Virus genome (UHGV): UHGV-0057520
Reading direction: 5' to 3' (one strand)
Source: a virus
Length of the DNA stretch: 30,871 nt
Part shown: positions 3,390 through 30,162 of the stretch, one piece after another
How the letters are laid out: every line of letters begins with the position of its first letter
Position numbering within the stretch: the stretch's first letter is position 1
The notes under the pieces: generated by a model
The model's database searches: none
The model's input: the letters and a program-made list of their open reading frames with translations, nothing else
Told to the model about the DNA's origin: nothing
Made by a program: the position numbers and the translations under genes

Positions 3390-4266
3390 GTTAGCTGATT
3401 ACAGGCATAACCCTGTACAACATCAGGAGGCATCCAGTATGGGGTATGTCTCTATACACCGCCAGTTTATGGACAGCAGGCTCTATAAGGACTCTCAGGC
3501 AGTACATCTTTGGCTTCACTTAATTCTCAAGGCTAATCACGAATCTACTGTCGTCAATACGGATATCGGGCCGATAACTGTTGATCGCGGTCAGATGATA
3601 ACTGGACGCCCGTCGCTGGTCAGAGAAACATTCATCCCCGACAACAAAGTTCGGAGCTTATTACGGACTTTTGAGTCGAAAGGGATGCTTAATATTTGCT
3701 CGATGGGGAAGAAATTTAGCCTGTTTACAATCGTTAAATATGACGATTTTCAGGCAAAAAATTGTCCAACGGTTGTCCAACGGTTGTCCAACGCAAACAC
3801 CAGTAATGGCGCGGCTCTCAGCGGAGATTGTCCAACGGTTGTCCAACAGTTGTCCATAAACAATAATATAAATAATATCTCTAATACTGACGTATTAGAG
3901 AGTGCCACAGCAGACAAAAAGTCTGACAAGAAAAAACCTTCCGTTAGCTGTCAGGATGTTGTCGATGCTTACCACGAAATCCTTCCTGAAGCGCCAAGAA
4001 TCCGCGCACTGAATGACAAGCGTAAAAACCAGATCCGAACGTTCTGGCGCAAAGCCGGAGTGATAACCCGCCAGCTTGACGGGCATGGGTTCACGATGCA
4101 GGACTGGAGAAATTATTTGAGCTACGTAGGCGAAAATTGCCGATGGATGTTCGAAGAACGCCCAAACCATCAACGCGGAACCGTCTGGCACAAAAAGGGA
4201 TTTGATTTCCTGCTTAACGACAATACCTACCTGAAAGTTCGTGAGGGTGAACACGATGACCGATAA
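3376..4266 (+). CDS. replication initiation protein (lambda O / P22 gene 18 analogue)
   Basis: 296 aa directly upstream of the helicase gene; contains the origin iteron array inside its coding sequence, as lambda O does; AGGAG ribosome-binding site before 3376. Confidence 0.7.
   Translation: MGVVKLADYRHNPVQHQEASSMGYVSIHRQFMDSRLYKDSQAVHLWLHLILKANHESTVVNTDIGPITVDRGQMITGRPSLVRETFIPDNKVRSLLRTFESKGMLNICSMGKKFSLFTIVKYDDFQAKNCPTVVQRLSNANTSNGAALSGDCPTVVQQLSINNNINNISNTDVLESATADKKSDKKKPSVSCQDVVDAYHEILPEAPRIRALNDKRKNQIRTFWRKAGVITRQLDGHGFTMQDWRNYLSYVGENCRWMFEERPNHQRGTVWHKKGFDFLLNDNTYLKVREGEHDDR
3762..3900 (+). repeat. replication origin: six direct iterons (TTGTCCAACGG-like) plus adjacent AT-rich segment
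   Basis: Copies at 3762, 3773, 3784, 3827, 3838 and 3849 (last truncated), followed by AAACAATAATATAAATAATATCTCTAATACT; translated as the repeated CPTVVQRLSN peptide. Confidence 0.7.
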
Positions 4267-6192: not shown

Positions 6193-6251
6193 AGGAGTGT
6201 TCAGTGACGCAAACCATTTTTTATTGGATTAAGAGCGAGTGGTAAGTACCG

Positions 6252-6434
6252 ATGGTAAATGCATTTATTTGTAGTTTATTTCTTGTCGCGATTTTTCATG
6301 GATTCCTTTTGATGATGAGTTTTGTTCTCTGGAATAATGGATATCGCATATTGGGAGTAGGTTTTGTTTTACGGTTTTCAGTTCTCTGCGCGTTGCTACC
6401 GATAATTATGGCGACTATCAAATATTATTGGTAA
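6252..6434 (+). CDS. small hydrophobic membrane protein, 60 aa, AT-rich
   Basis: Almost entirely hydrophobic (two helices); weak ribosome-binding site, so coding status is uncertain. Confidence 0.35.
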   Translation: MVNAFICSLFLVAIFHGFLLMMSFVLWNNGYRILGVGFVLRFSVLCALLPIIMATIKYYW

Positions 6435-6449
6435 CCCAAAAAATCATCG

Positions 6450-6818
6450 ATGGAGAGTGATATGGACGAATCAAGAAAGCAGTTTGAGGAATACGTTGCC
6501 AAAAAATTGAGATTACCATTCGAGATGATAACCGAGGCAAGAAATGGTGATAGGTACTTCGCATTTTCAAGCATGGATATTCGTCACTCCTTAAATGAGT
6601 GGTGGACTTTATGGCAGGCATCGCGAGCAGCTATTGAACTGGATATCGACTGGCCAGAATCGAATGACGACTTTTGGAAAGATGGTGAAGAAGGTGCTTA
6701 TGCGATGGGTTATGAGGATGGGCGTGACAAAACGGTAATTGCAGTAATGAAAGCTATCAGAGCCGCTGGAATTAAAGAGAAGAATTTCGATGAAGCAAAC
6801 AATCTTCCTCCGAAGTAA
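6450..6818 (+). CDS. hypothetical acidic protein (nin-region)
   Basis: ORF track start 6450; an alternative ATG at 6462 has a better GGAGAG ribosome-binding site; no family recognised. Confidence 0.45.
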   Translation: MESDMDESRKQFEEYVAKKLRLPFEMITEARNGDRYFAFSSMDIRHSLNEWWTLWQASRAAIELDIDWPESNDDFWKDGEEGAYAMGYEDGRDKTVIAVMKAIRAAGIKEKNFDEANNLPPK

Positions 6819-7920: not shown

Positions 7921-8389
7921 ATTATCATATGATGATGTTTTAGGTGTACTTAGATGGAAAGTGTCTCCTTCTAATAATGTTAAGGTTGGCAGTGTTGCTG
8001 GTTACATTAGGAGTGATGGTTATAGGATGTTAACTATCGATGGTGTAATTACTTATGCTCACCACGTTATATGGATGATAAATAATGGTGAGATTCCATT
8101 AGGGTATAAAATTGATCATATAAATGGAGTAAGGTCAGATAATAGGCTATCTAATCTTCGATTGGTTACACACCAACAGAATGCACAGAACCAAAAGAGA
8201 AAAATAACCAATTCGTCAGGAGTGACTGGAGTATATTTCAATAAAGAGAGATGTAAGTGGATTGCGAATATATGCGTAGATGGGCGCACCAAATATCTTG
8301 GAATATTTGCTAGCATCATTGACGCTATTGCAGAAAGGAAGAGGGCAGAAAAAGAACTGGGTTTTCATGAAAACCATGGCAGACCATAA
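7883..8389 (+). CDS. HNH homing endonuclease with AP2-like DNA-binding domain
   Basis: 168 aa; HNH motif IDHINGVRSDNRLSNLRLVTHQQNAQN; C-terminal SGVTGVYFNKERCKWIANICVDGRTKYLGIF resembles an AP2 domain; markedly AT-rich. Confidence 0.75.
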   Translation: MRNISNIDELRNKLSYDDVLGVLRWKVSPSNNVKVGSVAGYIRSDGYRMLTIDGVITYAHHVIWMINNGEIPLGYKIDHINGVRSDNRLSNLRLVTHQQNAQNQKRKITNSSGVTGVYFNKERCKWIANICVDGRTKYLGIFASIIDAIAERKRAEKELGFHENHGRP

Positions 8390-10782: not shown

Positions 10783-11242
10783 TCAACGTAAGGCGTTCCT
10801 CGATATGCTGGCGTGGTCAGAAGGAACAGATAACGGACGGCAGAAAACCAGAAATCACGGTTATGATGTTATTGTCGGTGGCGAGCTGTTCACTGATTAC
10901 TCCGATCACCCCCGCAAACTTGTCACGCTAAATCCGAAACTCAAATCAACAGCCGCCGGACGTTACCAGCTTCTTTCCCGTTGGTGGGATGCCTATCGTA
11001 AGCAGCTTGGCCTGAAAGACTTCTCTCCGAAAAGCCAGGACGCTGTGGCACTGCAACAGATTAAAGAGCGTGGCGCTTTACCGATGATTGATCGCGGTGA
11101 TATTCGTCAGGCTATCGACCGTTGCAGCAATATCTGGGCTTCACTGCCTGGCGCTGGTTATGGTCAGTTCGAGCATAAGGCTGACAGCCTGATTGCAAAA
11201 TTCAAAGAGGCTGGCGGAACGGTCAGAGAGATTGAGGTATGA
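10766..11242 (+). CDS. R: endolysin R (lytic transglycosylase)
   Basis: 158 aa, very close to lambda R as recalled; overlaps the holin 3' end as in lambda. Confidence 0.9.
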
Positions 11243-11676
11243 GCAGAGTCGCCGCGATTATTTATGCTCTGGTTATCTGCATCATCGTCTGCCTGTCATG
11301 GGCTGTTAATCATTACCGTGATAACGCCACCGCCTACAAAGAGCAGCGCGATAAAGCCATATCCATCATCGCTGATATGCAGAAGCGGCAACGTGATGTA
11401 GCAGAACTCGACGCCAGATACACAAAGGAGCTTGCTGATGCTAACGCGACTATCGAAAGTCTCCGTGCTGATGTTTCTGCTGGGCGTAAGCGCCTGCAAG
11501 TCGCCGCCACCTGTGCAAAGTCAACGACCGGAGCCAGCGGCATGGGCGATGGAGAAAGCCCAAGACTTACAGCAGATGCTGAACTCAATTATTACCGTCT
11601 CCGAAGTGGAATCGACAAGATAACCGCGCAGGTTAACTACCTGCAGGAGTACATCAGGACGCAATGCCTGAAATAA
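11239..11676 (+). CDS. Rz: spanin inner-membrane subunit Rz
   Basis: N-terminal [30 protein letters not shown] is near-identical to lambda Rz; coiled-coil periplasmic domain. Confidence 0.85.
11438..11623 (+). CDS. Rz1: spanin outer-membrane lipoprotein Rz1 (embedded in Rz, +1 frame)
   Basis: ATG at 11438 with GGAG upstream; signal peptide and lipobox (LLGVSAC) followed by a proline-rich segment. Confidence 0.7.
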
Positions 11677-22186: not shown

Positions 22187-22665
22187 TGGAAATAAAGCTC
22201 ATCGATAATCCGGTGAAGCTTGCAGAATTCCTCAACAACCCGGCAAACACAGGAAATATCGTAGACAGTGGAGATAAATACTACATCAAGCCTGATGCGG
22301 TATACCTCGGCATCTACGAAGGATTAGTGCTGGCTGGCGTTCATGAAGTGCGTAACTTCTGGCATAGCGTTGTTGAATGCCATGCGGTGTACGACCCCGG
22401 ATTCCGTGGTGAATATGCACTGCAAGGGCATCGATTATTCTGCAAATGGCTTCTCGAAAACTCACCATTCCTTAACAGCATCACCATGGTTCCTGACACC
22501 ACCAAATACGGACGGGCAATTATCCGTTTGCTTGGCGCTACCCGTGTTGGTCACCTTGATGATGCTTATACCAGCAATGGAAAGCCTGTAGGCATCACGA
22601 TTTATCAGTTACCGCGCTCAAAATACGAGGAGCTAAAGAATGTTAATTTCCCAGATTGCCAATAA
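22183..22665 (+). CDS. head/ejection accessory protein (P22 gene 14 position)
   Basis: 160 aa between the needle and the first ejection protein; assigned by synteny only. Confidence 0.5.
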
Positions 22666-23314
22666 GCACCTCAGCAAAGCTGTTTACTGCAAAGGTGGCA
22701 GTGATGGCGGTTCAAAGGCACAGGCACGCGCAACTGAAAAGGGCATCGAATTGCAGCGCGAAATGTGGCAAACGAACATGCAAAACCTTGCACCGTTCAC
22801 GCCACTTGCTCAGCAGTACGTATCACAGTTGCAGAATCTTTCCTCTCTTCAGGGGCAAGGTCAGGCGCTTAACCAGTATTACAACTCCCAGCAGTACAAA
22901 GACCTTGCTGGACAGGCGCGTTACCAGAGTCTGGCAGCAGCAGAGGCAACGGGTGGATTAGGCTCTACAGCAACAGGAAACCAGTTAGCAGCAATCGCAC
23001 CTACACTCGGTCAAAACTGGCTGTCAGGTCAGATGAACAACTACAACAATCTGGCAAACATTGGCCTTGGTGCTCTTACAGGTCAGGCAAACGCCGGGCA
23101 GAACTACGCTAACAACGTCAGCCAATTGTATCAACAGCAGGCGGCGGCATCTGCGGCTAATGCTAACCGACCATCAGGACTGCAATCAGCCTTGGGAGGT
23201 GCCATGAGCGGTGCTGCATCAGGGGCGATGATTGGCTCTGTGGTGCCAGGAATAGGTACGGCTGTTGGCGCTATTGGTGGCGGCATTATCGGTGGGCTTG
23301 GATCATTGTTTTAA
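22640..23314 (+). CDS. ejection (internal virion) protein, gp7-like
   Basis: 224 aa, Gln/Ala/Gly-rich with a glycine-rich hydrophobic C-terminus; position and size match P22 gp7. Confidence 0.65.
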   Translation: MLISQIANKHLSKAVYCKGGSDGGSKAQARATEKGIELQREMWQTNMQNLAPFTPLAQQYVSQLQNLSSLQGQGQALNQYYNSQQYKDLAGQARYQSLAAAEATGGLGSTATGNQLAAIAPTLGQNWLSGQMNNYNNLANIGLGALTGQANAGQNYANNVSQLYQQQAAASAANANRPSGLQSALGGAMSGAASGAMIGSVVPGIGTAVGAIGGGIIGGLGSLF

Positions 23315-23323
23315 GGTGGGAAT

Positions 23324-24736
23324 ATGGCTACTTGGCAACAAGGAATCAACTCAGGCGGTTTTCTTGCTGGTATCGGTGGGCAAAACTCAAATGCGCCAAA
23401 GGCAAGTGATGTAAGTGAGGCGTTGGCCTATATTCGCCAGAACAACGAAATGGAGCGTTCAGGTCGCAATAACATCGGCCTTCAGGCGTTGCAGGGACTT
23501 GGTAGTGTCGCTCAAACATATCAAGCCGCAAAGCAACAGGAAGCGGATGCTGCATTCCAAAAAGAATATGCGGCAGCCATCCAGTCAGGCGATCGACAGC
23601 AGGTGCGAGATTTGATGACCAAATATCCTGGTCAATTAGAGAAGATTCAGTCTGGCATGAAGTGGGCAGACGAAGACCAGCGCAACTCTATCGGCACCTT
23701 AGCGGCTGGCGCTCGCCTTGCGGCATCGTCTCCAGAAGCAATGCAATCATGGCTACAAAACAACGCCAAGGAACTGACTCGCGTCGGTGTTGACCCTAAT
23801 AACGTTGCTCAGATGTATCAGCAGAACCCTTCAGGATTTGGTGAGTTTGTTGATCACCTTGGGATGGCTGCGCTTGGTCCGATTGATTACTTCAATGTTC
23901 AGGACAAGATGGCTGGTCGTGAGATTGACCGAGGCGGGCTGGCAGAGACAATCCGCAGCAATCAGGCTGGTGAAGCACTTCAGGCGAGAGGGCAAAACCT
24001 TTCCTATCAGTCAGCAATGACTGGGCACAATATCGCAGCACAACGCTTGGCTCTGGATCAGCAAGAGTTCGGGTTTAAGATGCAGCAAGCGCAGGAAAAG
24101 GCTCAGCAGTTGATTAGCGAAGCACCTAAGCTGTCAGTAAACATGGAAAAAGGCATCGAGACGGCTGTAAACAATGCCACAGCATCATCAAACTCAGCCA
24201 ATTCCATGAGTGCGCTTGCTCAACAGTTCAGAGCAGAAAAACCAACGACCGGCTTGTTCGGTAACGCACAGAACATGTTCGCAAAACTTACCGGAAGCGA
24301 TACGACATTGCGTGATTTGCGCATTCGCCAAAATGCCCTTGTTAACAGTCAGGTTCTTAAATTCCTACCTCCCGGCCCAGCAACGGATAAAGACGTTGAG
24401 ATCGTTCGACAGGGTGCGCCAACTGACATGGATAACCCTGAGACGGTCGCAAGATGGCTTGATGCAATGGCAAACCTTGAGCGACGAAACGCGCAGTTTA
24501 ATGAGTTTAAAGCTGAGTGGATGAGCGCGAATGGCAACCCTGGACAATCGCGTAATGGCGGTCAGATATTGGGGTTGGATGTTAAAAAAGGTGAATCATT
24601 GGGGAGTGCCGTTAAGCGGTATATGTCAATGAATACTGACGCAGCGCCAGCACAAGATTCGACACCTTCAGGAGAACCACGGAATCAGGTTGGATCATAT
24701 ACCTCAAAATCAGGCATTCAATTTACGGTGGAATGA
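23324..24736 (+). CDS. ejection protein, gp20-like
   Basis: 470 aa (P22 gp20 is about 471 aa); assigned by synteny and size. Confidence 0.7.
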
Positions 24737-26580
24737 TGAAAGTAACTGCAAACGGTAAGACATTTACCTTTCCTGATGGTACGAGCACCGAAGATATTGG
24801 CACCGCCATTGATGAGTATTTTGCTGGTCAGGCTGTTCAGCAACAAACAGTTAATCAGGCCAATAATGCACCAACACGGGAAGAACCATCATTGATGCAA
24901 CAAGCTGGCGATTGGCTCACTGGTGGTCAAAGTGCAGGGCAAATTGCGGAACAGGCTGGTCGTGGTCTGGTAAACATACCATTTGACGTATTGCAGGGCG
25001 GCGCAAGTCTGATTAATGCAATCAGCCAGGGGCTTGGTGGCCCCAAGGTTTTGGACGATGTCTATCGTCCAGTCGATCGACCAACAGACCCTTATGCGCA
25101 AGCTGGAGAAACAATTGGCGGGTATTTAGTTCCAGGAGTTGGAACGGCAGGAAGCATGGCTATTGGATCACTGGCAGAGGCCGCAAATCAGAAAGGCGAT
25201 TTCGCACAAAATGCAGCTAAAAATGCCGGAGTTAACCTTGCCGCTCAGGGGGTTCTTTCCGCAGCAGCAAAGGGAATAGGGCGTGGAATAACGGCTATAA
25301 AAGGTGATATTGCGCCAGAAGTGGCGAAGAAAATTGCCACATCAGAATCGATGGGCGTGACACCAATGACATCTGATGTTATCACGCCGAAAAATGCTTT
25401 CACTCGCGGCCTAACTCAGGATGCCGAGGGGGCTTTGCTCGGGACAGGCTCAAAGCGAGCGGAGCAATATGCAACGCGTAGTAAGCTGGTAAGTAATTAT
25501 TTTGACCGTTTTGGTGAGTACAACCCTGATGATGTGGTGAAATCTCTTACCACCACGTTAAGGGGGCGGAAGGATGCCGCTGGCGCTGTTATCAATGACG
25601 TCACCAATAAAATGGGTAATGCCGCAGTTGATACCACAAATACCATGAATGCTCTGAATACAGCGATCGCAAGACAGGAACGGCTTGGGACGTCTGCCAA
25701 TCAAAGCCTGCTTACATCCTTGCGTAACCTACGTGAAGAATTAGCAAACCCTGCAACTGATTTGGATGTTACGTTTGATCTCTTGCGTCAGCACAGAACA
25801 GCATTTAGATCTAATGTTCAGGGAGATGCTATGGTCTTCCCAAACCAGGCAAAAGCAGCTACCAATATGGTAGAGAATGCAATGTCAAAAGATCTTCGTA
25901 ACGCAGTTGCAAAAAACCTCGGTGCATCAGACGCAGCAAAATACCTTAAAGCAAATTCCGATTATGCAAACGTTTATAATAAGGTGCTTAATAAAAACAT
26001 TGCTAACAAGCTCAACAAGGCAAGCAGTGAAGCCAGTCCTGAACTTATAAATACCGTTGTATTAAGCAGAAAACCATCTGACGTGAAACGAATCTGGAGC
26101 GCATTGGATAATAAAGGGAAAGATGCTATGCGTGCAGCTTATGTCAGCAAAATAGCGGAAAAGGCCGGTGACTCTCCAGCCAAGTTCATCACTGAAGTTA
26201 ATAAGCTGAAATCTCAGTCAGGCGGTGAAATTTACAACACTATTTTTTCTGGAAAGCACATGAAAGAGCTTGATTCTCTTCATGAAGTTCTACAGCAAAC
26301 AGCAAGGTCAGACACCGCAAATGTAGTAACTCAGACGGGGCAATCGCAAGCCAACAGGATAAGGACGATTGGCGCAACTGCGACTCTTGGCGTATCAATG
26401 GGGCTTGAGGCTGGTTTCGGTGCAATGATGCGCTTGTATGAGTCAAAAGCAGCAAGGAATGCTCTCTTACGTTTGGCAAACACCAAAGCAGGAACACCAG
26501 CCTATGAAAGAGCGCTAAATAATGCTGCAAATGCGATACGCCCTATACTTTCAAGCCAAATTACAGCAGAACAGCAATAA
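24733..26580 (+). CDS. ejection protein, gp16-like
   Basis: 615 aa (P22 gp16 is about 609 aa); assigned by synteny and size. Confidence 0.7.
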
Positions 26581-26593
26581 AAATAAGATATAA

Positions 26594-27078
26594 CTATCTG
26601 ATATTACTGCTACTGTTGCATGTTACCGTGTTTCCAAATCCTGAATTGCAGTTTGTATATGTGTCAACGCGTGTTGGGTAAGGTTGAGTTATAACAGGCT
26701 GGCGCGCTTTTTGCTCGATCGCTTGCATTGTGTTTACAGCCTGATAATTCAATAAAGCCTGCTGGAATGCTTGGCTTTGTGCTATTTGTTGTGCTTGTTC
26801 TTGGCTTTGTAATTGAACATAAAGATTCTGAAGTTCAAGTCTTGCCTGTGTGTCACTTATCTTGCCTTCATCGACACCTTGCCCGAGCATCTTCGCAGCA
26901 AGGACATACAGCTTAGGTGTTGGTGCTGATGCCATGCGAGAGTCGTTCTTCAAGCTGGCATCAAGGCAATTAGCCATATCGCTAAGCTTTGGATAGCGTT
27001 GCTCGCAACTTGCCTGATAGTCGCTTACTTTTGCGCACCCAGCCAGCAGAAGCGGGATAATTAACAGTGATTTTTTCA
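26594..27078 (-). CDS. lipoprotein, about 161 aa mature-region Gln-rich (candidate exclusion or conversion factor)
   Basis: ORF track 26594..27130; likely start is the ATG at 27076-27078 giving MKKSLLIIPLLLAGC (signal peptide and lipobox); opposite strand to the flanking late genes; Gln-rich helical segment then Cys-containing C-terminus. Confidence 0.6.
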
Positions 27079-27113
27079 TATAATTAACTCTCCTTAGTTT
27101 TGCGCAGGATACC

Positions 27114-27479
27114 ATGAAAAAAGTTAACATTGGAAACGTACCAAAGATGCTCGTTCCGCTCTTTGAGAGCGGTACAATTGTGTTTTGTAGAGACTTTCCA
27201 GAATGGCAACGCCTGCATCAAAAACTTGGCGTTGACGTGCATGACTCGGACGCCAACGGAGCGTCTCATACAATGAGTAGCGAGAATGGTGTTTTGCATG
27301 TGATAGGCGTGTTCAATGGCAAACTATCTACTATTGCCCATGAGTGCGCTCACATGGCATTCGATATCTGCTCAAGGGTAGGTGTTGATGTTGAACCAGG
27401 AAGAGCCAACGAGACTTACTGCTACTTAATGAGCAGGCTTGTTGAGTTCTGCGAGCGACATATCAAAAAGCCGGAGTGA
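27114..27479 (+). CDS. small HExxH protein, possibly ImmA/IrrE-like (M78) zinc metallopeptidase
   Basis: 121 aa; HECAH motif followed about 15 residues later by RANETYCYLM, resembling the HExxH...E.EAN.FA signature of ImmA/IrrE domains as I recall them. Confidence 0.5.
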   Translation: MKKVNIGNVPKMLVPLFESGTIVFCRDFPEWQRLHQKLGVDVHDSDANGASHTMSSENGVLHVIGVFNGKLSTIAHECAHMAFDICSRVGVDVEPGRANETYCYLMSRLVEFCERHIKKPE

Positions 27480-27492
27480 CCCGGCTTGATTA

Positions 27493-27687
27493 TTACTTTT
27501 TGCTGTCTGGAGTTCGCTTATCCAATACCCAGCCATGACCTGGCTTTGTTGTTGGTGGAAGCCTTTCGTTGTCCTTGACGGTTGCAAAATTGTCTTTCTT
27601 ACCGCCGCGTGGGCCAACTTCTTGGTATATTCCGCCGTTTTTTCCTGTGTTTTCACCTGGTTTTTTCGCCATGATATACCTCAACAT
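27493..27687 (-). CDS. small basic Gly/Lys/Pro-rich hypothetical protein, 64 aa
   Basis: ORF downstream of the mnt terminator on the minus strand; low-complexity; no family recognised. Confidence 0.35.
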   Translation of the reverse strand: MLRYIMAKKPGENTGKNGGIYQEVGPRGGKKDNFATVKDNERLPPTTKPGHGWVLDKRTPDSKK

Positions 27688-27763
27688 ACACCCGTTATTG
27701 GGCGATTAAATATTGATCTCATTTTATAAGTAGTCAATATGGCCCAGGTAAATGCAAAAATTA

Positions 27764-27786
27764 ACCCACCTTCAGGTGGGTTTTTT
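27764..27786. terminator. bidirectional rho-independent terminator at the 3' end of mnt
   Basis: ACCCACC-TTCA-GGTGGGT hairpin flanked by AAAAATT upstream and TTTTTTG downstream. Confidence 0.7.
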
Positions 27787-28023
27787 GTACAAATCCTTCA
27801 GCGTATCAAACACCATCTTCTTAACAAGCTCTGACTGCTCATCAGCGATGCGTTCCGCATCGTCTCGATAGCCTGAAATTTTGGATGGCTTTGATACAGC
27901 ATCAGTCACTATCTGAACTAATTCTGAATTAAGAGAGCGGCCATTGGATTTGGCTCGCTGTTTTAGTTTTTCCTTTAATTCGTAAGGTAGCCGCAGATTA
28001 AATTGCGGGTCATCTCTTCCCAT
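27772..28023 (-). CDS. mnt: Mnt repressor (ribbon-helix-helix, P22 immI-type)
   Basis: 83 aa; NGRS.NSEL.QIV.DA.SKPS...GYR.DAER.ADEQSELVKKMVFDTLKDLYKK is near-identical to P22 Mnt as recalled. Confidence 0.85.
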   Translation of the reverse strand: MGRDDPQFNLRLPYELKEKLKQRAKSNGRSLNSELVQIVTDAVSKPSKISGYRDDAERIADEQSELVKKMVFDTLKDLYKKPT

Positions 28024-28087
28024 TCTTGATGCCTCGCTTTTGTGAGTGGATCGGCATCTTATTATCTGCTGATTGCATCCTCAATAA

Positions 28088-28100
28088 GACCACGGTGGTC
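28088..28100. promoter_or_regulatory. Mnt operator-like palindrome (O_mnt), likely overlapping a rightward promoter
   Basis: GACCACGGTGGTC is a perfect 13-bp palindrome sharing the CCACGGTGG core of the P22 mnt operator as recalled; lies between mnt and the tailspike start. Confidence 0.55.
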
Positions 28101-28170
28101 GTATTTTTTTGATTAATAATGCATCACTGCGGCAATGCTGCGGCGATTCCTTGTATCTGGAGCAAATTAA

Positions 28171-30162
28171 ATGACAGACATTACAGCCAATGTTGTAGTG
28201 AGCATGCCTTCGCAACTCTTCACTATGGCGCGTTCTTTTAAAGCCGTAGCTAATGGCAAAATTTATATCGGTAAAATTGACACTGACCCGGTAAATCCTG
28301 ATAACCAGATTCAGGTCTATGTTGAGAACGAAGATGGTTCTCACGTTCCTGTTGCACAGCCAATCGTCATCAATGCCGCTGGGTATCCAGTATATAACGG
28401 ACAGATTGCCAAATTCGTAACTGTGCAAGGCCATTCTATGGCTGTTTATGATGCATGTGGTGCGCAGCAGTTCTATTTTCCAAATGTGCTGAAGTATGAC
28501 CCGGATCAGTTAAGGCAGGAGTTAGCAAGTTCAGGTGATGATCTTGGAGATGCATTAATAGCAGTAAAACAACCATTCACCTTGTCAATAAGAAGGACGC
28601 AGCATCAAAAAAATGCCGAGCACATTAGTGTTAGTGATTTTGGTGCAAAAGGAGACGGCATAACAGATGATACTGTAGCAATTCAAAATGCTATTAATGC
28701 AGTACCAGAAGGGGCTATACTTGGATTTTATGGTGGTGAATTTGTTTTTGATAAGGTTGAATTGCTTAAGCCAATAACATTGGTTGGTGATGCAACGTTA
28801 ATTCACAACGGATTTAGAATAAAATCTAGCAGAATACGATCACTTTTATCTGGTGTTCAGAAATGCAAGGATTACTCCGAGTCTTCAAGAGCATTTTATT
28901 GCTATGCAAATGAAGACCAAAGAGATTATGACGATATTCAGATTTTGTTTAATAGATTTGAAGGTTTCTTTTACTCTACGACATTTGTTGCAAAAAACTA
29001 TTATTTGGAGAATGACCCTAATTCAAGAACTGTCAAAAATACAAAAGTAATAGGATGTACATCAGTTGCTCCTGATTCTGTAAATGCCGGTCATTTTCAA
29101 CATATAGGCGTTACAAATGCTGAAACATCACATAACTCAACTTATGGCGGACAAAATGCAACATCATACAACTTCATTAACCAGAATGGATTTGTAAGGA
29201 TTATAGGAAATTATGACCATAACAATAACTATGGTTCATGTGAGCTTGAGAACTCAATGGTGAGTAACTCAGTCATATCATGTAATACGTTTTCGTCATA
29301 TTTATGGGTGGATGATACAAGCAATGTTACTATTTCTGGAAATACAGTTTCATCAAGGATCAAAGTAACATCGCAAACTGACGATGTTCATAATATAACC
29401 ATATCAGCAAATACCACAAAACGGATTACTATAGAGCAATTTGGAGAATCTCCGACAGGTCTGGTATATGGTGCATTAATTTCCTGTAACACTATTACTG
29501 GCGACAGTGATGGAAGTTCAGACATTTTATGTACGTCACTTGTTACAGGTGAAATTTCATCAAATTATTGTCATGGATCAGAAAAAAATATATCAATTGT
29601 CCGCCTGGATTCTTCTGATATAACTGTTAGAAACAATAAAGGAAACAAAGGATTACTTACAATAAGTAACGATGGTGGGAGGATAATTGAATATGGCAAT
29701 GATTCTATGGTTCTGTCTGGAAGCATAGATAGCAGACATATACATAATTTATTACAACCAGACACATCGTATTTAGATCTACCGGGGAAATATCTGCACG
29801 GAACTAAATATACTGGCAGTATCCCCCCCGGTTCCACAGGAACTGTATCACTTCAAATACCATCAGGGGCAAGCCTTGTTTTCAGGGGTGTTTCTATATG
29901 GGTTCTAATTAGAGATGTTAGCAATAACAATATATCGTCATTCAGAATTGATGGTTCATATAGAGTTGTTGGTGGAAGTGTTGGTCTTAGTTTTGCTGAT
30001 GCTTATTCGAAACTCGGGGTGGATGCAAACTCTATAACAGTGTCAAACAATAACAGCACTTCTGACAATATCAGCATAGCAATTAAAAACACAGATTCAT
30101 CAAAAACCCTTCAGGTTACTGTTATGCCGGAGGTTTCAAGCAGGTTAGGTATTGAGGAATAG
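28171..30162 (+). CDS. tailspike: P22-type head-binding N-terminal domain fused to a different, AT-rich receptor-binding domain
   Basis: 663 aa; first ~110 residues ([11 protein letters not shown]...[20 protein letters not shown]...VLKYDPDQ) match P22 gp9; the rest carries beta-helix/pectate-lyase-like signatures ([18 protein letters not shown]) and is Asn/Ser-rich. Confidence 0.85.

Follow-up and report, generated by a model that had tools for sequence, protein, structure and literature searches.

A lipoprotein at the sieA locus of P22-like prophages, predicted to reside in the outer membrane and a candidate for superinfection exclusion

The 30,871-nucleotide stretch of viral DNA analyzed here (the window) comes from a P22-like (Lederbergvirus) prophage of Escherichia coli, of which it forms the late region, and at the position where P22 carries sieA it encodes a lipoprotein. 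We tentatively propose that this lipoprotein replaced sieA and that it most likely protects the lysogen by blocking the entry of superinfecting phage DNA, acting from the side of the periplasm opposite to that of SieA. Exclusion is a plausible function and the single most likely one of those weighed below, because the gene occupies the sieA slot and retains the sieA promoter, sieA itself is absent, a relative appears to carry the gene in an operon with mnt, and an orthologue is transcribed in the lysogen. Other phage lipoproteins (Cor, Llp, Ltp, and the Lpp proteins of mEpimmI) add precedents. The family is already catalogued as PHROG 6067, with no assigned function and no Pfam entry, and a literature search found no characterization of it in P22-like phages.

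A sequence-only reading of this DNA had placed the gene at 26594-27078, on the strand opposite the late operon. The minus strand and the stop end of that span hold, but its start falls 1 nt short, and its translation is out of frame and contains stops. The open reading frame occupies 26594-27079 on the minus strand, from an ATG at 27079-27077 to a TAG stop that ends at 26594; the 161-residue product begins MKKSLLIIPLLLAGC and is identical to an E. coli RefSeq "hypothetical protein" (WP_016231948.1). The gene is indeed convergent with the late operon, and 13 nt lie between its stop and that of the gene 16 homologue. A longer, 178-residue reading from an ATG at 27130 was rejected: the extra codons are not kept in homologues, no Shine-Dalgarno sequence precedes this ATG, and it falls within the promoter; the 161-residue start was preferred because the MKK start is kept among homologues and N-terminal extensions are not. 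The ratio dN/dS is 0.047 against the orthologue in prophage Gally and 0.042 against VSe13, and more distant homologues are still 50 to 87% identical in protein sequence although their synonymous sites are saturated. The ORF is a real gene under strong purifying selection.

The same earlier reading had recognized a lipoprotein signal with a lipobox, and this part of it stands up well. An n-region of MKK and an h-region of SLLIIPLLL are followed by the lipobox LAGC with Cys15, in agreement with the pattern applied ([LVI][ASTVI][GAS]C, together with a positive n-region, a hydrophobic h-region, and a Cys within about 30 residues of the start). Only 2 of 304 Met starts in the window (at least 50 aa) show a lipoprotein signal, those of this ORF and of the Rz1 spanin. 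The lipobox Cys is invariant in all family alignments, alignments A1 and A5 also keep the G-C pair without exception, and Ala16, at the +2 position, is invariant in the close family (alignment A1). In Enterobacterales the residue after the lipidated Cys governs sorting, with Asp at +2 leading to Lol avoidance. Since the +2 residue is an invariant Ala and not the Lol-avoidance Asp, the lipoprotein is predicted to be sorted to the outer membrane. Hydrophobic 19-residue windows are confined to the signal peptide (maximum Kyte-Doolittle value, 1.32), and hydropathy across the whole protein reveals no C-terminal transmembrane (TM) segment.

In the better of the AlphaFold models (42 sequences; mean pLDDT, 69.6), the N-domain is modeled confidently (pLDDT of 83 to 92 over residues 21 to 100), a long helix spans residues 76 to 125 with low confidence in its Gln-rich distal half, and the Pro-containing linker that follows is disordered. 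Composition bears out the Gln-rich helical region described earlier: Gln accounts for 20 of 161 residues (12.4%), and 16 of these 20 fall within residues 78 to 131, which are predicted to be helical. Heptad and hydrophobic-moment analysis of this helix found no convincing coiled-coil register, and we therefore make no claim of oligomerization. Alignment A5 shows no variation at Cys25, Cys38, or Cys154, and we infer two periplasmic disulfides, Cys25-Cys38 and Cys144-Cys154. The C-terminal module is variable and swappable, ending either in CNSSSNIR (type 1) or in CQSY (type 2). A Citrobacter sp. homologue (L012, 112-564) differs from the window at a dN of 0.15 in the N-domain and of about 0 to 0.01 in the Gln-rich helix and C-terminal parts, an intragenic mosaicism indicating that the halves of the gene recombine independently.

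Table 1. Positions of the lipoprotein gene, its parts and its neighbors in the window, and of three distant homologues on contigs of their own
Feature	Position	Strand	Remarks
Rz1 o-spanin, inside Rz (11239-11676)	11438-11623	+	Pfam Rz1 E = 2e-20; other lipobox ORF in the window
gp7-like	22640-23314	+	
gp20-like	23324-24736	+	
Divergent gp16-like	24733-26580	+	
Lipoprotein CDS	26594-27079	-	161 aa plus TAG stop; PHROG 6067 member; dN/dS 0.04-0.05
Predicted beta-hairpin, residues 138-158	26606-26668	-	Cys144 and Cys154 in motif T-N-C-x3-G-N-x3-C
Gln-rich extension of long helix, residues 97-127	26699-26791	-	Low model confidence; Pro-containing linker next
Helical N-domain, residues 16-96	26792-27034	-	Invariant Cys25 and Cys38; common to the wider lipoprotein superfamily
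Signal peptide (residues 1-14, MKKSLLIIPLLLAG) and predicted lipidated Cys15	27035-27079	-	Lipobox LAGC
PsieA region and hkcC module	27086-27400	.	97.5-98% identical to P22 and HK620
Shine-Dalgarno AAGGAG	27090-27095	-	10 nt before lipoprotein ATG; at a recombination joint that the window shares with Gally and with P22, where it precedes sieA
PsieA-identical sequence (TTGGTACGTTTCCAATGTTAACTTTTTTCAT)	27114-27144	-	31/31 against annotated P22 PsieA promoter
hkcC-like	27114-27479	+	121 aa; PHROG 1365 (function not assigned)
orf59a-like	27493-27687	-	64 aa; PHROG 3202
mnt	27772-28023	-	Arc and Repressor_Mnt domains
Tailspike	28171-30162	+	
L017, distant homologue	6208-6633		Between UvrC/UDG/Zn-peptidase genes and EarP
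L018, distant homologue	8001-8375		Toxin-antitoxin or integrase island
L020, distant homologue	3509-3922		Toxin-antitoxin or integrase island

In P22 the corresponding position, between gene 16 and hkcC/orf59a/mnt and on the same strand, is that of sieA. An identical junction segment and the same gene order are found, for example, in E. coli strain Ecol_881, where they adjoin dacD. The window also retains a sequence identical to the P22 PsieA promoter (Table 1), within a segment (27086-27400) that is 97.5% identical to its P22 counterpart. The promoter sequence is just a weak consensus match and was missed by a generic promoter scan. The 5' leader differs from that of P22 by one base up to the common AAGGAG, and homology to P22 then stops at the ribosome-binding site, 7 nt before the lipoprotein ATG. 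That P22-like identity ends at this point indicates a precise exchange of cassettes, with the lipoprotein ORF in place of sieA. This ORF is in turn a mosaic module, with a match to Gally that runs from the stop codon to just past the ribosome-binding site. When placed ectopically, sieA is functional with just 85 bp of upstream DNA (PMC10883804), and this 85-bp sequence is conserved in the window. As sieA is carried by just 22 of 66 P22-like phages (PMC10883804), alternatives in its slot are to be expected.

The slot and its relatives were also searched for sieA itself. No homologue of P22 SieA or of HkcB was found in the window or in the loci compared with it; with the type A sequence as the sole SieA query, tblastn at E <= 1 matched just P22. 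None of 12 slots scanned contains an ORF with at least three TM segments, and the P22 control scores three.

Other features of this neighborhood deserve separate mention. The start codon of the hkcC-like gene overlaps the end of the PsieA annotation, and the lipoprotein gene diverges from it across 35 bp of shared intergenic space. No terminator-like hairpin was found in the 13 nt between the convergent stops of gene 16 and the lipoprotein gene (26581-26593); transcription of the late genes should therefore continue across the lipoprotein gene in the antisense direction, and transcription from PsieA should likewise continue antisense into gene 16. The 615-residue protein in the gene 16 position has no match to Pfam P22_gp16 and is called "hypothetical" in RefSeq, and its 31 to 35% identity to gp16 at other lipoprotein loci marks it as a divergent ejection-protein type. 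The orf59a-like ORF gives a weak, subthreshold YjzC-like Pfam match and has bidirectional terminator-like hairpins on both sides (27468-27487 and 27763-27782). Within 27772-28170 there is no arc or ant between mnt and the tailspike gene, which are about 147 bp apart, so that Mnt is an orphan repressor in the window, as it is in Gally. The mnt and tailspike genes of Gally are coinduced in macrophages (PMC9928086).

Profile comparison places the lipoprotein in PHROG 6067 over its full length (E = 2.9e-109, residues 1 to 161 on profile positions 1 to 161). Scans against Pfam (E <= 0.1), NCBIfam, and PADLOC-DB v2 (E <= 0.1) gave no match, a profile search of PDB chain sequences gave chance matches alone (E of about 1), and no fold relatives were found in BFVD or the PDB. 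Ninety clusters of the family were found at 90% identity, with named sources in Escherichia, Citrobacter, Serratia, Cronobacter, Klebsiella, Pectobacterium, Yersinia, Morganella, Providencia, Tatumella, and Symbiopectobacterium. Their labels are all hypothetical except for one "lipoprotein" and one evidently spurious "GspK"; the latter, from Cronobacter (P0023), is a full-length family member whose name is evidently wrong. An E. coli protein of 167 aa labeled "recombinase" (P0089, Pfam ERF) matches positions 1 to 53 of the lipoprotein profile and is probably a chimeric or miscalled ORF.

Where flanking genes are available, the family keeps its place. The order gene 16 (convergent), lipoprotein, tailspike is preserved in every flanked locus, that is, in the window and in 12 further distinct loci that cover at least 8 further genera; the syntenic loci come from Escherichia, Salmonella, Yersinia, Morganella, Serratia, Pectobacterium, Providencia, Tatumella, and Proteus and from an Enterobacteriaceae metagenome-assembled genome. 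Among 50,697 phage records, tblastn found the lipoprotein in five phages, all of them Lederbergvirus-like. One is Proteus phage Brookers, whose family member (gp14, labeled "putative lipoprotein") is encoded 17 nt downstream of the mnt stop and in the same orientation as this gene for a lysogeny-maintenance repressor, with which it apparently forms an operon. Of 5426 complete E. coli genomes, 186 carry the gene; their upstream junction is of P22 type in 19 and of Gally type in 24, with other partners in the remainder.

Independent expression, possibly in the lysogen, had been expected from the orientation of the gene, and two lines of evidence now agree with it: the intact PsieA sequence in the window, and transcription of the Gally orthologue, LF82_138 (GALLYPH_13), while its late neighbors stay at background. 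LF82_138 is 97.5% identical to the lipoprotein of the window and, in published RNA-seq of the E. coli LF82 lysogen, gives 70 normalized reads in LB against a prophage median of 15.6 (PMC9928086 S1 Table), which makes it the second highest Gally gene in the lysogen, behind the C2 repressor at 727 reads (PMC9928086). Gene 16, next to it, does not rise above background in any condition, with log2(fpkm+5) values of 3.6 to 4.2 (PMC9928086). For the orthologue, transcription in the lysogen independently of the late operon is thus demonstrated, from an upstream module that differs from the one in the window. LF82_138 lies 4.5-fold above background, and Gally was reported to have no morons because this value is just under the authors' 5-fold cutoff (PMC9928086).

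These observations suggest how a lipoprotein in this slot might exclude phage. The protein would be exported by Sec, lipidated at Cys15, and, with Ala at +2, transferred by Lol to the inner leaflet of the outer membrane. The compact helical N-domain would sit at the membrane, the Gln-rich helix and the C-terminal hairpin would project into the periplasm, and the protein could interfere there with an outer-membrane-proximal step of DNA delivery. Candidate partners are a host outer-membrane or periplasmic component and the conserved ejection protein gp7. Across loci, identity is 50 to 97% for the lipoprotein, 44 to 79% for gp7, 28 to 70% for gp20, and 31 to 35% or undetectable for gp16. Because the lipoprotein is far more conserved than gp16 and gp20, its partner is more likely to be something conserved than to be the hypervariable gp16 and gp20 C termini that SieA targets. 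Covariation with gp16 type was dropped as an argument in view of the same ranges for gp16 and the lipoprotein. A precedent for the arrangement comes from E. coli, where phage lipoproteins encoded inside structural-gene clusters give receptor-specific exclusion (PMC11893012).

Several findings count against exclusion. The same slot holds other cargo elsewhere (hkcB, of no assigned function, in HK620, and a second, PEGA-like lipoprotein added in Gally), and slot contents other than exclusion genes weaken the case. A dN/dS of about 0.04 and conservation across genera are not the signature of an arms race. Induction of the orthologue in macrophages and the scoring of Gally as having no moron also weigh against exclusion, as do the chromosomal homologues outside phages and the lack of a PADLOC match. 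We remain doubtful of the broader proposal that the family constitutes a new class of outer-membrane-anchored superinfection exclusion protein, one that would stop podovirus DNA at the outer-membrane/periplasmic end of the ejection-protein conduit or at a conserved host docking partner, that would form the counterpart to SieA in the inner membrane, and that would have been recruited from a proteobacterial lipoprotein superfamily with no Pfam model or structural relative.

That superfamily is wide. An exhaustive profile search returned 242 representatives at E <= 1e-3, mostly proteobacterial lipoproteins of 125 to 180 aa, among which no name or Pfam domain was found. They share an N-domain motif, GC-ATVGxYQxxCE...CL...KLYLLKAEQL..V..GEISD.DARVELQ.LYV, and often a C-terminal TTNC...GN...C motif as well. 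Distant members are about 32 to 38% identical overall, with the likeness chiefly in the N-domain. Three of them (124 to 141 aa) could be placed on contigs, all in non-phage neighborhoods (Table 1), and distant members used singly as queries against viral contigs gave no match. Such chromosomal and island contexts imply that the fold serves cells in a way that does not involve P22-like phages.

One possibility, and a serious rival to exclusion, is that the lipoprotein serves the host: a domesticated member of a cellular lipoprotein family, carried as a moron, it would tune envelope physiology in the lysogen (stress tolerance, intracellular or serum survival, or envelope integrity) and not phage entry. 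The variety of cargo in the slot, the chromosomal relatives in non-phage contexts (L017; L018 to L020), strong purifying selection with conservation across genera, and induction in macrophages all give this alternative weight, and the exact protein occurs on at least 1000 E. coli contigs. Expression of LF82_138, as log2(fpkm+5), is about 6.1 in LB (6.3/6.0) and rises to 8.6 in macrophages at 6 h (8.7/8.5) (PMC9928086). The same data set gives 7.9 to 8.2 in columns headed B1 and B6, probably culture medium, and 10.3 in columns headed MB1, probably macrophages at 1 h (PMC9928086). The divergent lipoprotein neighbor, LF82_139, rises alongside: it stands at about 5.5 in LB and reaches about 11 under MB1, the probable 1-h macrophage condition (PMC9928086). 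This second lipoprotein (GALLYPH_14; L001 4620-5039, plus strand; 139 aa, beginning MKRIIGVVAGAILLSGC) takes the hkcC position in Gally and matches PHROG 6823, of no assigned function, with a weak PEGA-domain match.

We nonetheless regard host adaptation as a possible role and not as the leading one. The Enterobacterales members examined all lie in the sieA slot of P22-like prophages, beside ejection-protein genes, and never elsewhere in the genome or in phages of another type, and in the window the sieA promoter is reused. A Pfam search at E <= 0.1 linked the protein neither to Bor or TraT nor to any other known virulence lipoprotein. Deletion of mnt in LF82, a different gene from that of the lipoprotein, left macrophage survival unchanged (PMC9928086).

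An unlikely alternative is receptor masking in the manner of Cor and Llp, in which the lipoprotein would bind the periplasmic face of OmpA, OmpC, FhuA, or a similar protein and block unrelated phages, not P22-like ones specifically. Its predicted outer-membrane sorting, with the invariant Ala at +2, and a degree of conservation that suits a conserved host target are consistent with this idea, for which Cor, Llp, and the OmpA- or LamB-specific Lpp proteins of mEpimmI (PMC11893012) are precedents. Against it, no sequence likeness to Cor extends past the signal peptide (PHROG 1119), no fold match was found in BFVD or the PDB, the 147 mature residues make it about twice the size of Cor or Llp, and linkage to ejection-protein genes points to P22-like biology. 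A function in the lytic cycle, whether in lysis in the manner of an o-spanin or in the virion or its assembly, is highly improbable: a phage-encoded lipoprotein of outer-membrane type could fit, and a weak PHROG match to an Rz-like spanin exists (E = 0.07, signal peptide region only), but the gene runs against the late operon, its orthologue is transcribed while late genes are silent, the product lacks a C-terminal TM segment and has no Pfam match to Rz1 (PF06085), and a spanin role was rejected given the window's own Rz with embedded Rz1 (Table 1).

If the lipoprotein does exclude phage, it would offer a second handle on assembly of the gp7/gp20/gp16 trans-envelope conduit, this time from the outer-membrane side, and it would bear on which lysogens, ST131 and AIEC strains among them, fall within the host range of therapeutic and typing podoviruses. 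If instead it serves the host, as macrophage induction in LF82 might suggest, it would be an overlooked moron in a prophage reported to have none. In either case, it marks out a domain family that Pfam does not include. With sieA in just about one-third of sequenced P22-like phages, the lipoprotein is one common alternative occupant of the slot, across Enterobacterales. Its function is readily testable, the family is widespread, and the question touches on the mechanism of podovirus DNA delivery.

How far the lipoprotein resembles known exclusion systems depends on which of them is compared. The sequence-only reading had found it not obviously related to Cor, and we agree: the PHROG 1119 match (E = 0.092) aligns only residues 1 to 29, the signal peptide. 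Like Cor (phi80, N15, and HK022) and Llp (T5), it is a Cys-containing phage lipoprotein with an outer-membrane-type sorting signal. Cor and Llp protect the infected or lysogenic cell, are about half its size, and target FhuA, the receptor of siphoviruses, whereas P22-like podoviruses bind O-antigen. The predicted architecture of a helical domain, a Gln-rich helix, and a hairpin also sets it apart from both. Ltp of Streptococcus phage TP-J34 and Lpp021/Lpp010 of mEpimmI are likewise temperate-phage lipoproteins, and these two systems block DNA entry. The mEpimmI lipoproteins, too, are encoded within the structural-gene cluster (PMC11893012). Ltp differs in the envelope type of its host, and tblastn found the present family in five P22-like phages only.

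The closest comparison is with SieA of P22. Both genes lie convergent with gene 16 and upstream of mnt and the tailspike gene, on the same strand, with the same promoter and ribosome-binding site; the products are similar in size (161 versus about 164 aa), and both are envelope located (predicted here) and expressed from the prophage (as seen for the orthologue). The two proteins have no sequence similarity. SieA, of types A, B, and C, is a polytopic inner-membrane exclusion protein with at least three TM helices and a cytoplasmic FxRYPxEAxxFNK motif (PMC10883804), whereas the lipoprotein has a cleavable lipoprotein signal alone, with a predicted outer-membrane anchor and a predicted periplasmic location. 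By position between genes 16 and 9 and by its leftward PsieA, the gene looks like a sieA; by homology and by number of TM helices, its product does not. At most, then, the protein may work like an exclusion protein, and it is best described as a prophage envelope lipoprotein at a superinfection exclusion locus.
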